DNA of 64,000 nucleotides, taken from assembly GCA_016209735.1 (NCBI GenBank), contig JACQVN010000014.1:4633-68632 (forward strand), read 5' to 3'. The stretch is from Candidatus Methylomirabilota bacterium. GTDB taxonomy: Bacteria; Methylomirabilota; Methylomirabilia; Methylomirabilales; 2-02-FULL-66-22. Of this stretch, positions 31,265-35,126 are shown piece after piece. Position numbers and translations under genes: made by a program. How positions within the stretch are numbered: position 1 is the first letter of the stretch; each line of letters opens with the position of its first letter. Below the pieces are notes generated by a model. That model saw only the letters and a program-made list of their open reading frames with translations. It was not told the origin of the DNA and made no database searches.

Positions 31265-32178
31265 TGGCGCTGTCCGGATTCTTCTCCCGCCTCCAGGAAG
31301 GTCTCAAGAAGACCCGCGATACCCTCCGGACGAAGCTGGACGTCCTCTGGGGCTCCGCCCCCATCGACCCGGCCCGCCTGGAGGAACTCGAGGAGGCGCT
31401 GCTGGCGGCCGATCTGGGCCCGGCGACGGTGGAGGCCGTTCTCGAGCCCGCCCGCAGGCTCTTCCGCCAGGAGGGGGCGACCACGGCCGAGGCCATGCGG
31501 CGGCTCCTGGCCGAGCGCATCGCCGACCTCTTGACGGTCCCGTCCCCGAAGCGCCCGGAGACGGCGGCACCCCACGTCACCCTGTTCGTGGGAACCAACG
31601 GCTCCGGAAAAACCACCACCATCGCCAAGCTGGCCAAGCGCTACCGGGACGGCGGCGAGGAGGTCCTCCACGCCGCCGCCGACACGTTCCGGGCCGCGGC
31701 CATCGAGCAGCTCCAGATCTGGGGGCAGCGGATCGGATCGGACGTGATCGCCCACCGGCCGGGAGCGGACCCGGCGGCGGTGGTCTTCGATGCCTGCAAA
31801 GCGGCGACCGCCCGCGGCGCCCCGCACCTCCTCATCGACACCGCCGGCCGGCTGCACACCAAGCATAATCTGATGGAGGAGCTGAAGAAGATCCACCGGG
31901 TCATCGCCCGCGAGATTCCCGGGGCCCCCCACGAGACCTTCCTGGTTCTGGACGCCACCACCGGCCTGAACGCCTTGGCCCAGGCCCGGGAATTCCATCG
32001 GGCGGTCTCCCTCACCGGCCTCATCGTCGCCAAGCTGGACGGGACCGCCAAGGGCGGGGCCGTCATCGCCATCGCGTCCGACCTCGCGCTCCCGGTCCGC
32101 TACGTGGGCGTGGGCGAGTCCGCCGAAGACCTCCAGCCCTTCGACCCTCACGAGTTCGCCCTGGCCCTCTTCTCGTGA
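31264..32178 (+). CDS. ftsY: signal recognition particle receptor FtsY (NG domain only)
   Basis: GTNGSGKTTTIAKLA, AADTFRAAAIEQL, DTAGRLH, AKLDGTAKGG. 304 aa with no acidic A domain. Confidence 0.95.
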   Translation: MALSGFFSRLQEGLKKTRDTLRTKLDVLWGSAPIDPARLEELEEALLAADLGPATVEAVLEPARRLFRQEGATTAEAMRRLLAERIADLLTVPSPKRPETAAPHVTLFVGTNGSGKTTTIAKLAKRYRDGGEEVLHAAADTFRAAAIEQLQIWGQRIGSDVIAHRPGADPAAVVFDACKAATARGAPHLLIDTAGRLHTKHNLMEELKKIHRVIAREIPGAPHETFLVLDATTGLNALAQAREFHRAVSLTGLIVAKLDGTAKGGAVIAIASDLALPVRYVGVGESAEDLQPFDPHEFALALFS

Positions 32179-32185
32179 ATCGAAT

Positions 32186-32353
32186 CAATGCAAAATCGAC
32201 AATGAAAAACTGAAAACCGATCAATGAAGTCCTTGACCGGTTTTGAATTGTCGGTTTTCAATTTTGCATTGGCTCTCGTCGATTGTCGGTTTTAACTTGT
32301 CGGTTGTCGGTTGTCGGTTTTGCATTCTCCACGAGCCATCAGCCATCAACCAC
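32186..32353. repeat. word-repeat element (family A hairpin 32186-32271 plus TTGTCGG and GCCATCA tandem words)
   Basis: CAATGCAAAATCGACAATGAAAAACTGAAAACCGATCAA..TTGACCGGTTTTGAATTGTCGGTTTTCAATTTTGCATTG, then CGATTGTCGGTTTTAACTTGTCGGTTGTCGGTTGTCGGTTTTGCATT, then GCCATCAGCCATCAACC. Confidence 0.85.
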
Positions 32354-32877
32354 ACCCGAGGCAGCCGCTCTCGGCACATTGTCCCGTGATTCGGATGGGT
32401 ACGACGAAGGCTTTGAGCAAACCGCTCGAAGCGCGGCGAGTCCCTGAAGTAGAACAGGTGGCCCGGGCAGCGGCAGTCGGAGGCCCCGAAGCCGCGGAGG
32501 GGGATGTCGCATCCTGGCAGCCCAGAGAGTATGGCGGCCCAGTCGTGCTCCCGCGGGACGGGATCGGACGTGGCCCAGACCTCGACAGGCTGCGCGGCCG
32601 CCCGGAGATAGTCCACGTGCCAGCGGGGGCGGCCGTCGCCACGAAGATGGCGGGAGACCCGCGCCTGCAGGCCGCCGGGGCCGAAGGCGCTGCCCACGTA
32701 GAGGTACCAGCCCGGCCGCAGCGCCAGCCGGCCGAGCCGGCCGACCGTGATGGACCGCTCGGTGAGGACCCGGAAGACCACCGCGTAGGTTCCGGGCCGC
32801 GCCGGCAGACGTTGCGCAGTGGTAGCCCGGATGGAAAAGCAGCGGGCCGCGTCCGATTCCGACGCGGTTCGTTTCAT
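32221..32877 (-). CDS. GIY-YIG nuclease superfamily protein (DUF123/Uri-like), C-terminus encoded by repeat
   Basis: Start at ATG 32877 (GGGGGAGG upstream). GTYAVVF......GWYLYVGSA.G.GGL..R..RH......RWHVDYL, then ..C.CPGHLFYF. The last 45 aa or so (MADGSWRMQNRQPTTDKLKPTIDESQCKIENRQFKTGQGLH) lie within the repeat at 32186-32353. Confidence 0.75.
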   Translation of the reverse strand: MKRTASESDAARCFSIRATTAQRLPARPGTYAVVFRVLTERSITVGRLGRLALRPGWYLYVGSAFGPGGLQARVSRHLRGDGRPRWHVDYLRAAAQPVEVWATSDPVPREHDWAAILSGLPGCDIPLRGFGASDCRCPGHLFYFRDSPRFERFAQSLRRTHPNHGTMCRERLPRVWLMADGSWRMQNRQPTTDKLKPTIDESQCKIENRQFKTGQGLH

Positions 32878-33083
32878 CTCGGATACCTCCCCCATTCGTT
32901 CCCCAGTGCTGGCGACAGATTCCCGTCGAGGCACTTCATGGAGAGCCAACCGGTCACAACCTGACCCACGTGCCAACATTTGACTTGGACATACCGACCA
33001 ACAAGTTAAATGAGTAAACTACGTCCCCCTCATGAGTGCAATTGACATCCGTCGGCGCCGTGGCTGGATCGAGGCTGGGAGGG

Positions 33084-33677
33084 TTACTCGCGGGGGAGGC
33101 CTTCGAAGATCTCGGCGACGGTCACCGTGAGGCCGGGGACGACGTGACTTCGCAAGATGTCCCCGGGTTTTGCGATGGCGTGGGTGCGCCAGGCTCCGGC
33201 CTCCAGGAGGCGCTGTTCGAACTCGTGCCGGGTCAGGTTCACCAACCACAGTTCAGGAACCTTCAGGGCCGCGTAGGTATCCGCTTTCGTCTGTCGGTCG
33301 TACAATTCCGTGCGCTGGGAGAAGGCTTCCACAACCAGATCCGCGCAGCGAAGCTCGCCGAGCCCGGTGACGGAGGGCAGGCGCTCCCTGCTCACGAACA
33401 TCAGGTCCGGCGCCAAGTACGTGTTCTCCGGTGTCCAGATGGCAGCCCGGGGGACGTACAGTTCGCCGAGACCGGGGTGCCGGTCCAGGAAGCCGGCAAT
33501 CCGTCGGTTGAGCCGGGCGACTACCAGGTTATGCAGCTCTGAAGGGGGAGGGACCATGTAGAGCACTCCGGCGATAAGTTCATGGTGACCACCCTGAGGG
33601 GGAGCAGGGAGGTCCCAGAACTCCCTGAGAGTGTACTGTCGTACCAGGGGGGACGTTGTGACGATTCCTGAAGTCAT
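33084..33677 (-). CDS. Uma2 family endonuclease (DUF820, PD-(D/E)XK)
   Basis: ELI.GVLYMVPPP...H......L...........G.......A........PDLMFV.......CADLVVEAFS......D...K...YA...VPELWLV. Confidence 0.88.
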   Translation of the reverse strand: MTSGIVTTSPLVRQYTLREFWDLPAPPQGGHHELIAGVLYMVPPPSELHNLVVARLNRRIAGFLDRHPGLGELYVPRAAIWTPENTYLAPDLMFVSRERLPSVTGLGELRCADLVVEAFSQRTELYDRQTKADTYAALKVPELWLVNLTRHEFEQRLLEAGAWRTHAIAKPGDILRSHVVPGLTVTVAEIFEGLPRE

Positions 33678-33903
33678 CGGCGCTGGCCTACTGACAAAAG
33701 GAGTTGATTAATTGATTGGCCGGTACGAATTTGCCTTTCGGCTGCCGGGCGCAACACCCACCGCCGCGCCCGCCGGCCCCCAAGGGACTCAGCCGCAAAT
33801 GACGATGGCCGGATTCGTGCGCTGTGTCAAGGAAAAATGCCTGCGATCTGCAAGCGCGGCGAGACCGCTTCGCACGATGGGGGACGCAGGGGAGGAAACG
33901 CGG

Positions 33904-35007
33904 CCGTAACAGGGGACGCCCATGAAATTATGATATTCTCAGCTCGCGAAACGAGACGCCTGTCGTCACCCCGTAGCGCTCGCCGCGGCACACCGCCCGG
34001 CTGACCGCCGACTGCGTGATTCCCAGCGCGGCTGCCACAGCCGTCCCGGGCAGCCCCAATTCGCGCACGGCCCAGTAGCAGACAAGGCTCCGGGCCTGGG
34101 TGCGCCGGGGTTGCTTACTAGGGACTCGCAGTTCCTCGGGCGTGAGCGCGAAGCGCGCAGCCACGCGCCGGAGGAGCGACTCCAGATCCACCCCGCGTGC
34201 CCGAAGTTGGTCTCGCCGCTCTCGCTGTTCCTCTGCCGCCCGCAGGGCGCTCTCGACAAACTCGCCGTCTCCGAGGATTCGCTCGTCTCCTTTCACCCGC
34301 TCGGTCCGCCGCTGCGCTGTGAGAGCCCGCCAGCCGCCTGCACTCCGGACCAGGCCTCCCCCGGTCAACTCAGAACGGCGGCCGAGCGGGATCCCCTCCG
34401 CCACGAAGGCCCAATACCGCCTTCTGGCGGTCGCGACCCGGCGCCCGAACTGGGCCAGCACTGCGTCCGTGTCCTGCCACGGACTCTCCGCTTTCCCCAT
34501 CAGGCGACTGTGGCCACCATAGGCGTACCGATCCAGGGCCGGCAGGGCGTCCACCAGCTTGGCACGGAGCGGGTTCAGGTGGAGGTAGCGGACAAGTTCG
34601 AGAAAGTACGATTCCTCCTGGCATAGGATGGACTTGTACCGGTTCTGGAAGAGGTAGCCGTGTCGTCGGTGGCGCCGGTTGTAGCTCGCGGCATACCCGG
34701 TGAGGATGCGGCTCATGACAGTCGGCAGAGGGACCGTTCCTGTTCGGAGGAGGAGGTGCACATGGTTCGGTAGGAGGGACCACGCATAGCAGGAGGTTCT
34801 CGTGCTGGTCAGTATATTTCCGAGGCGGGCCACAAAGTCGTCCCTGTCCGCATCGTCGCGGAACACAGGCTGCCGCTCGATGCCGCGGCAAATGACGTGG
34901 TGGAGCGCCCCGGGCGCATCCAGGTGAGCTCGGCGAGGCATAGAAAGTTTATAGCACAACCCTCACGAAGAAGAAACTCATGATTTCATGGCCGTCCCCT
35001 ATTAACC
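33904..35007 (-). mobile_element. RAYT-type (IS200/IS605-like Y1) transposase unit with imperfect terminal inverted repeats
   Basis: Left end CCGTAACAGGGGACGCCCATGAAATTATGA (33904-33933, overlapping the CDS stop). The reverse complement of the right end (34978-35007) is GGTTAATAGGGGACGGCCATGAAATCATGA. About 24 of 30 positions match. Confidence 0.7.
33928..34941 (-). CDS. REP-associated tyrosine transposase (Y1 HUH) with C-terminal DnaA-C-like HTH
   Basis: Start at ATG 34941. HHVICRGIERQPVF, HUH motif LLPNHVHLLL, YLFQNRYKS, catalytic-Tyr context VRYLHLNPLRA, C-terminal LPGTAVAAALGITQSAVSRAV. Confidence 0.85.
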   Translation of the reverse strand: MPRRAHLDAPGALHHVICRGIERQPVFRDDADRDDFVARLGNILTSTRTSCYAWSLLPNHVHLLLRTGTVPLPTVMSRILTGYAASYNRRHRRHGYLFQNRYKSILCQEESYFLELVRYLHLNPLRAKLVDALPALDRYAYGGHSRLMGKAESPWQDTDAVLAQFGRRVATARRRYWAFVAEGIPLGRRSELTGGGLVRSAGGWRALTAQRRTERVKGDERILGDGEFVESALRAAEEQRERRDQLRARGVDLESLLRRVAARFALTPEELRVPSKQPRRTQARSLVCYWAVRELGLPGTAVAAALGITQSAVSRAVCRGERYGVTTGVSFRELRIS

Positions 35008-35126
35008 CGTGGGATTCGCGGTGGATCTTGCACACCGTTCTTGACCTTAGGCATTCGCGGCACTACACTTCAGCCGAATCGTTGCGTTTGAACCGCAAGG
35101 CGGCGCAGGGCCTGGGTATCGGGATC

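Follow-up and report, generated by a model that had tools for sequence, protein, structure and literature searches.

An intact TIRtron in a Methylomirabilota genome, probably an IS-like unit whose arms covary with the DnaA-like helix–turn–helix of its transposase

A 64,000-nucleotide stretch of a Methylomirabilota genome (hereafter the window) contains an intact TIRtron, a member of a class named in 2013. We consider it likely that the locus is an insertion sequence (IS)-like unit of roughly 1.09 kb, in which a single gene for a tyrosine transposase of the Y1/HUH type (TIRYT) lies between two inverted arms. Each arm is composed of a short tail, an invariant GGGGACG and two locus-specific repeats of 8 bp, followed on the upstream side by the −35 region of the promoter. 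Across the family, the same bounded unit occurs in different genomic contexts, and the variable bases of the arms follow the recognition helix of a C-terminal helix–turn–helix (HTH) domain.

The class was introduced by Di Nocera, De Gregorio and Rocco in 2013 (PMC3733652), who gave the name TIRtrons to genes resembling those of REP (repetitive extragenic palindrome)-associated tyrosine transposases (RAYTs) that have long terminal inverted repeats (TIRs), and the name TIRYTs to their proteins. Many of these TIRs have GGGGWSAS in common, lie at a constant distance from the gene and may overlap its 3′ end, and some are moderately abundant repeats without a gene (PMC3733652). Quentin, Siguier, Chandler and Fichant (2018; PMC6006769) placed most TIRYTs in subclass 2.1 of TnpA_REP, in which subgroup 2.1.2 has a Bac_DnaA_C/HTH C terminus; they found no REP-like sequences near the genes of the subclass and left open whether the C-terminal domain recognizes the TIR. 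In our literature search, the term TIRYT was used only in these two papers. The element in the window is made up as follows.

33928–34941, minus strand: TIRYT gene (337 amino acids) from the list of open reading frames (ORFs); the product starts MPRRAHL... and carries NHVHLLL and RYLHLNPLRA
34972–35004, minus strand: upstream (5′) arm, TAATAGGGGACGGCCATGAAATCATGAGTTTCT in the gene-strand reading, from the repeat finder
33907–33939, plus strand: downstream (3′) arm, TAACAGGGGACGCCCATGAAATTATGATATTCT read inward, from the repeat finder; it covers the stop codon TAA at 33928–33930
Arm sequence pattern of the element: GGGGACGSCCATGAAAT
34993–34999, minus strand: GGGGACG, the invariant end motif, in the upstream arm, from the family alignment
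33912–33918, plus strand: GGGGACG, the invariant end motif, in the downstream arm (CGTCCCC when read along the gene), from the family alignment
34975–34990, minus strand: two 8-bp direct repeats, CATGAAAT CATGAGTT, of the upstream arm, from the lag-8 autocorrelation; proposed HTH sites
33921–33936, plus strand: two 8-bp direct repeats, CATGAAAT TATGATAT, of the downstream arm
34948–34956, minus strand: extended −10 element TGCTATAAA, 6 nt ahead of the ATG
34971–34976, minus strand: weak −35-like TTTCTT at the inner edge of the arm
33880–33886, plus strand: extra GGGGACG in the same orientation, 26 nt outside the downstream arm

The initial annotation of this DNA had taken the two peptide motifs as those of a Y1/HUH tyrosine transposase and had added a DnaA-C-like HTH, and both identifications are upheld. 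The Pfam model Y1_Tnp matches the protein significantly (34.2 bits, cut-off 23); H60, H62 and Y119 of the N-terminal Y1/HUH domain are all invariant or nearly so in the family, and the start MPR is invariant across the homologue alignment. Three regions make up the protein, namely the Y1/HUH domain, a Gly-rich linker (about residues 191–229) and a DnaA-domain-IV-like HTH (about residues 254–325). The AlphaFold (AF2) model has a pLDDT of 78.7, with low confidence at residues 191–229. In Foldseek, the best match of the N-terminal domain was 4er8, TnpA_REP bound to a REP hairpin (E = 1.4e-5), followed by the TnpA proteins of ISDra2 and IS608, and the C-terminal domain matched the DNA-binding domain of DnaA (3pvp and 1j1v, TM-score 0.69–0.73). 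A sequence search of the Protein Data Bank (PDB) with the family profile matched DnaA (2z4r, E = 0.06) and did not find TnpA_REP, which was recovered solely by fold comparison. Bac_DnaA_C scores 19 bits, under its cut-off of 31.5; several other HTH models match residues 255–322, each below cut-off, among them HTH_23 with 14.7 bits. The linker (GGGLVRSAGGW...DERILGD, at about 34255–34371 of the window) is nearly invariant in the family, yet it is predicted to be disordered (pLDDT <50).

A protein from a metagenome-assembled genome (MAG) at NCBI that is 100% identical to the window TIRYT is annotated as ‘transposase [candidate division NC10 bacterium]’, and some relatives carry the source annotation RayT. 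Because dN/dS is 0.07–0.20 in four pairs, the TIRYT proteins are under selection and functional. The designation as a RAYT-type gene in the initial annotation holds for the lineage and for the Y1/HUH enzyme type, but strictly speaking the locus is not a RAYT, because the protein does not reach the cut-off of the NCBIfam REP_Tyr_transpos equivalog (NF047646; 63.2 bits against 80), the window arms have no GTAG tag and the arms do not fold. Folded one at a time as single strands, the arms have energies of −5.0 kcal/mol (z-score −0.41) and −1.3 kcal/mol (z-score +1.02), which rules out a REP-type hairpin in each arm.

That inverted ends bound the unit had also been proposed, and this is confirmed by both the window and its relatives. 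In the window, the arms are 33 nt each, 85% complementary (28/33) and 1032 nt apart, and the second-best inverted repeat that the repeat finder reports in the region is only 22 nt long. The two arms are identical at 24 of the 27 positions of the end consensus TAA(C/T)AGGGGACG(C/G)CCATGAAAT(T/C)ATGA. When up to 3 mismatches are permitted, the 64 kb contain exactly two instances of the 18-nt arm core AGGGGACGSCCATGAAAT, against 0.13 expected by chance.

For comparison across the family, we assembled 3 homologous loci by exact-protein look-up and 80 from species-representative genomes; the latter are mostly Desulfobacterota MAGs, with 53–67% identity. Upstream arms were detected at 64 of 70 loci, downstream arms at 61 of 73; over about 70 homologous loci, ungapped arm scores are typically 15–30, and 6.5–8 in the few loci without arms. 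Because most of these about 70 loci repeat the arm pair with unchanged spacing to the start and stop codons, the inverted repeat is not a product of chance. Among the 64 loci with an upstream arm, GGGACG begins 56 to 58 nt (57 ± 1 nt) before the ATG in 56. Among the 61 with a downstream arm, the commonest distance from the stop codon to the end of CGTCCC is 15 nt (15 loci, the window included), and in 55 the distance is 15–33 nt. Within one locus, the arms are about 90% identical over 24 nt; between loci they have only GGGGACG and a few other positions in common, the motif being GGGGACG throughout the subfamily sampled. The variable part of the arm contains a pair of direct repeats at 8-nt spacing (lag-8 autocorrelation 0.44–0.48, background about 0.27), and the second repeat of the upstream arm in the window adjoins the −35 region.

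The family alignment also reveals a promoter, with the consensus TGnTAt at −15 to −10 and TT(G/t)ac at −35 to −30. The −35-like element, TTGACA in many loci, lies at the inner edge of the upstream arm, the ATG follows 6–7 nt past the −10 element, and a Shine–Dalgarno-like motif is present in just 5 of 70 loci. As this conserved promoter puts the start of transcription at the ATG, the TIRYT mRNA appears to be leaderless, with the upstream arm outside the transcript. For the window element, the family alignment is the basis of the promoter claim; a simple consensus scan did not call its own TIRYT promoter, because the −35 element is weak. Consensus scanning did mark a promoter-like site (GTAACA-17-TATGAT) inside the 3′ arm (33906–33934, plus strand), antisense into the TIRYT gene, and a terminator-like hairpin at 33839–33855 (minus strand), about 70 nt beyond the stop codon and outside the element.

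That the unit from arm to arm moves is indicated by related copies in unrelated flanks, which are homologous only from about GGGACG to CGTCCC. One locus (L045) has two copies 5 kb apart that are 98.2% identical over 1111 bp; their homology runs from AAAAGGGACG to CGTCCC, the flanks are unrelated and no target duplication was seen at the two copies. Two loci from different genomes and with different flanks (L064 and L079) match at 85% identity along 1087 bp whose limits are exactly GGGACG and CGTCCC. In a third pair (L074/L077), homology starts at AAATAGGGGACG on the left and extends on the right 97 nt beyond the stop codon, through duplicated copies of the end, and a fourth (L027/L042) has the same boundary on the left only. 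Overall, homology between related copies in different flanks begins at GGGGACG or up to about 12 nt before it, and in the two cleanest pairs it stops exactly after CGTCCC. Fragments (pseudogenes) and internally deleted TIRtron copies exist as well, as they do for ordinary IS elements.

For the window copy, mobility is supported indirectly, by its place in a non-syntenic insert.

32179–35040: 2.9-kb insert without synteny, bounded by ftsY (last position 32178) and by the conserved promoter of ribD (from 35041)
Content of the insert: a word-repeat palindrome, a DUF123 gene (32221–32979, minus strand), a Uma2 gene (33084–33677, minus strand) and the TIRtron

The SMC, Robl and FtsY genes precede the insert, and ribD extends from 35127 onward. 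We compared the site with relatives whose RibD is 78–84% identical. In some of them (L086 and L087/L088), ftsY and ribD are adjacent, with 135–175 bp between them, and the closest relative (L084) has DUF123 and unrelated DNA at this site and no TIRYT. Judged by gene order in these relatives, the ftsY–ribD adjacency is ancestral. The closest homologues of the window TIRYT (76% identity; L001 and L134) lie in other gene contexts; together with the non-syntenic insert, this identifies the window element as acquired DNA. The DUF123 (GIY-YIG-like) and Uma2-family nuclease genes share the insert with the TIRtron (32179–33906). DUF123 adjoins arrays of the 7-nt ‘word’ repeat both in the window (32186–32330) and in L084 (about 1240–1370), which suggests that it may be DUF123, rather than TIRYT, with which the word-repeat hairpins move. 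A search of window positions 1–64000 against Rfam returned no family at gathering score and no FMN riboswitch before the ribD–ribE–ribBA operon.

Copies of the arm without the gene were found when we searched metagenome contigs for the window arm type, GGGGACGNCCATGAAATNATGA, which occurs at 77 loci representing 65 distinct contexts. Seven of the 65 are arms of full units, with a partner arm at 1086–1091 bp as in the window, and 1 is a deleted copy of 473 bp. Eleven belong to mini-elements of 59–141 bp, including a family of about 70 bp in five different flanks, which fold as near-perfect hairpins (z-scores of −6 to −13). A further 27 are solo arms with no partner within 1.5 kb and, for most, none up to 8 kb; the remaining 19 lie on contigs too short to place a partner arm. 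The occurrence of gene-less hairpin mini-elements and solo arms means that a relationship like that of RAYTs and REPINs exists for the TIRYT family; gene-less copies of other TIR types were reported in the 2013 paper (PMC3733652). In one contig (L165, 194–1344, minus-strand reading), a further palindromic pair of arms, GGGGACGTTGATGAATTCATCA, belonging to a different specificity type, lies about 0.9 kb from a 59-bp mini-element, and arms of differing types also cluster in L096, L131, L140 and L157.

The variable part of the arm can be set against the protein that would have to recognize it. In 63 loci, we compared distances over 20 variable arm nucleotides with distances between regions of the protein. 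The recognition helix (residues 296–322) correlates with the arm (Spearman 0.50, Mantel p = 5e-4), also when the N-terminal domain is controlled for (partial correlation 0.495). By comparison, the catalytic N-terminal domain reaches 0.135, and a non-significant 0.08 when the helix is controlled for, and the middle region of the protein shows no correlation in these loci (0.056). The strongest covariation links residue 315 to positions 12 and 20 of the arm and residue 310 to positions 10 and 18, so that the two bases coupled to one residue are 8 nt apart. Arg315 is paired with G in 72 of 80 cases, Ile315 with A in 30 of 34 and Lys315 with A in 41 of 56; Gln310 is paired with A in 160 of 182, and Thr, Val or Leu at 310 with T in 40 of 40.

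In DnaA, H434 and T435 contact bases (PMC13451751, citing the E. coli structure). Profile alignment of the TIRYTs to domain IV of E. coli DnaA equates residue 310 with H434, 311 with T435 and 315 with H439. H439 and P423 are also said, by Fujikawa et al. in 2003, to contact bases. As the variable arm bases covary specifically with the recognition helix, the HTH probably reads the arms, taking the two 8-bp repeats of each as duplex DNA. The covariation thus argues that the HTH reads the variable repeats and not the G-rich motif, and GGGGACG would then be left to the conserved catalytic part.

We hypothesize that TIRYT binds each arm through its HTH, with one HTH per 8-bp repeat and hence two or more protomers per arm, and that this would set the Y1/HUH domain at the invariant GGGGACG boundary. 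By analogy with the transposases of IS200/IS605 and REP elements, Tyr119 could then nick one strand at GGGGACG and rejoin it, so that the unit, or mini-elements with the same arms, would be excised and reinserted. Binding to the upstream arm would cover the −35 element of the leaderless promoter and might repress the gene itself. Insertion beside existing end motifs could give rise to duplicated ends and clusters of arms.

Extra copies of the end motif lie no more than 80 nt outside the arms in 15 of 60 loci upstream (25%) and 14 of 60 downstream (23%), compared with 1.7% of control windows. Often these are short tandem duplications of the motif with 5–15 flanking nt, just outside the arms (for example, L006, L051, L053 and L055 upstream; L004, L017, L032 and L049 downstream; and 33880–33886 in the window). 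Such duplications could have been left by repeated nicking and rejoining, or by insertion adjacent to an end. Complete additional arms lie 0.5–6 kb from the element in 14 loci. In three loci (L031, L048 and L064), a second arm of the upstream type stands in direct orientation about 1–1.3 kb ahead of the TIRtron, with the following content between the direct arms.

L031, 5013–5943: MazE-antitoxin/PIN-toxin pair
L048, 4990–5943: ParE-toxin pair
L064, 4702–5943: 248-amino-acid ORF

In these three loci, the arms may be insertion hot spots or may bound composite units that carry cargo.

An alternative to the mobile unit is a domesticated host gene that is not itself mobile and stays at a fixed place, its arms serving as autoregulatory operators, as has been proposed for RAYTs; it would act in trans on solo arms and mini-elements, or take part in some other transaction of host DNA. 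We think this unlikely, although a number of observations favour it or otherwise weigh against the mobile unit. Mean column identity of the family across phyla is 70%, which is unusually high for a transposase, and the dN/dS values given above reflect purifying selection. Most genomes have one or a few diverged TIRYT copies, each with its own arm type, and the 64-kb window contains no second TIRtron copy or mini-element. Gene-bearing units, full or deleted, account for about 8 of the 65 metagenome contexts, as against 11 mini-element instances and 27 solo arms. One protein (P0056) is in the same context on all 7 of its contigs, although these are one locus seen in several samples and P0056 is therefore uninformative for mobility. 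Among PLSDB plasmids there is no close full-length relative, only distant N-terminal matches (29–42% identity), and our literature search found no experimental report on any TIRYT, including transposition. The window arms disagree at 5 of 33 positions, and the insertion junctions of the window copy are unreadable because the intergenic DNA of the relatives is too diverged. Cleavage at GGGGACG, the choice of strand and the transposition pathway are proposed by analogy, and covariation among related sequences is inflated by shared ancestry, for which a control comes from within the proteins, whose N-terminal and middle domains show no covariation with the arms. A gene fixed in place is, however, hard to reconcile with units in unrelated flanks both within a genome (L045) and between genomes (L064/L079 and L074/L077), with the non-syntenic insert that holds the window copy and the other contexts of its nearest homologues, or with the existence of internally deleted derivatives and pseudogene fragments.

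It is very improbable, in our assessment, that the inverted repeat works by base pairing, whether as an mRNA 5′–3′ stem or as a single-stranded DNA (ssDNA) ‘panhandle’, or that it is a chance repeat. The idea draws on the complementarity of the arms (28/33), on the perfect folding of mini-elements with the same arms (z −6 to −13) and on the known action of Y1 enzymes on single-stranded hairpins. Nevertheless, the family promoter starts transcription at the ATG, with the upstream arm outside the mRNA, and mismatches between arms are mostly transversions (90 of 125, 62 of these A↔T), with no wobble bias (21 versus 14). The start at the ATG and the lack of wobble bias led us to reject mRNA 5′–3′ pairing, and family-wide conservation of the arms excludes chance. 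An ssDNA stem formed by the two arms is possible as the cleavage substrate, and would recreate the duplex HTH sites.

The initial annotation had suggested the gene as a candidate mobiliser of the hairpin elements in the window, which would make it a classical RAYT acting on the local word repeats and palindromes. In favour of such a role are the Y1/HUH fold, nearest to TnpA_REP, the relatives annotated as RayT and a genome rich in hairpin repeats, yet we give it almost no credence. The protein falls below the cut-off of the NCBIfam model, the arms are not hairpins, and the arm occurs only twice in the 64 kb, with no repeat family carrying it. A check for a hairpin family with a GGGGACG core in the window gave a negative result: the 7-mer is not enriched (34 occurrences against 29.7 ± 5.2 expected), and only the arms contain more. 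The caveat of the same annotation, that the ends do not resemble the local word repeats or palindromes, proved correct, as none of these families has more of the arm than the 7-mer. No link of the TIRtron to the other hairpin repeats is seen in the window, and because the locus is an ordinary example of a class that has had a name since 2013, what is known of the hairpin repeats of this genome is unchanged.

The locus is, instead, an entry point to a very large transposase family. A first protein search gave more than 7,700 clusters at 90% identity, and a profile built from 24 members gave 4,137 clusters at 50% identity (E ≤ 1e-30), the best of which are mostly 320–345 amino acids long. Three members with 53–60% identity (L073, L033 and L066) lie on contigs assigned by binning to a Promethearchaeota (Asgard) archaeon and to Bacteroidota, reflecting either wide horizontal spread or binning error; the first of these (L073) has no recognizable downstream arm. 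With somewhat more doubt than conviction, we propose that TIRtrons are a mechanistically distinct kind of HUH/Y1 transposon, whose ends would be read by the HTH through a simple and evolvable code in two 8-bp duplex repeats and cut at GGGGACG. In the proposed code, Arg at residue 315 would specify G, and Ile or Lys A; at residue 310, Gln would specify A, and Thr, Val or Leu T. End specificity would then differ among thousands of lineages, each of which could drive a family of hairpin mini-elements of its own. If this is true, the ends could be re-targeted by one or two substitutions, and TIRtrons would form a bridge from classical TIR transposons to those that use single-strand hairpins. From the model follow predictions for the bases read by particular residues, for the ends of the unit and for the transcription start; if these are borne out, the family would provide a naturally diversified, programmable recognition of DNA ends by a protein, coupled to an HUH nuclease. 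The comparison of loci also addresses the question raised by the 2018 phylogenomic study of whether the DnaA-like C terminus recognizes the ends.

Among known systems, the element is closest to the published TIRtrons, with which it has in common a RAYT-like Y1 gene with long TIRs in place of REPs, a fixed distance between TIR and coding sequence, a 3′ TIR that overlaps the coding sequence, and a common G-rich motif. The protein is likewise much longer than RAYTs and has a C-terminal Bac_DnaA_C/HTH domain (HTH_23 or HTH_28 in the class), and TIR copies without a gene occur singly, as dimers or in clusters. It differs in the motif, here GGGGACG(G/C): the arm motifs of the window, GGGGACGG and GGGGACGC, match 7 of the 8 positions of GGGGWSAS, with G at position 7 where A is expected. 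It also differs in its host, NC10/Methylomirabilota not being among the published TIRtron examples compared. Likeness to the RAYT/REPIN system (E. coli TnpA_REP, 4ER8; Nunvar 2010; Bertels & Rainey 2011) extends to the Y1/HUH fold, for which 4ER8 is the best structural match, to a gene placed between inverted copies of its presumed target sequence with a repeat type of its own for each paralogue, and to gene-less inverted pairs that make long hairpins, resembling REPINs as mini-elements. By contrast with that system, TIRtron arms are non-palindromic and have no GTAG, the protein is roughly 200 amino acids longer, including the HTH, and the unit turns up in new contexts, whereas typical RAYTs are single-copy and vertically inherited.

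With IS200/IS605 elements (the TnpA proteins of IS608 and ISDra2), the TIRtron has in common the HUH motif with a single catalytic Tyr, ends that often adjoin each other and, at the TIRtron ends compared, no visible target-site duplication. IS200/IS605 elements, however, lack terminal inverted repeats and use a pair of subterminal hairpins, both on the same strand; their TnpA, of roughly 130–150 amino acids, has one domain and no HTH, as against 337 amino acids for the TIRYT. The element does not belong to this group, as its protein has three regions and neither of its inverted-repeat ends forms a hairpin by itself. Domain IV of DnaA bound to the DnaA box (1J1V and 3PVP) has the same fold as the C-terminal part of the TIRYT, and the TIRYT residues that covary with the arms align with H434, T435 and H439 of DnaA. 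The target, however, is not the DnaA box TTATNCACA; specificity varies by locus, and the TIRYT arm has two sites 8 bp apart, in direct orientation.

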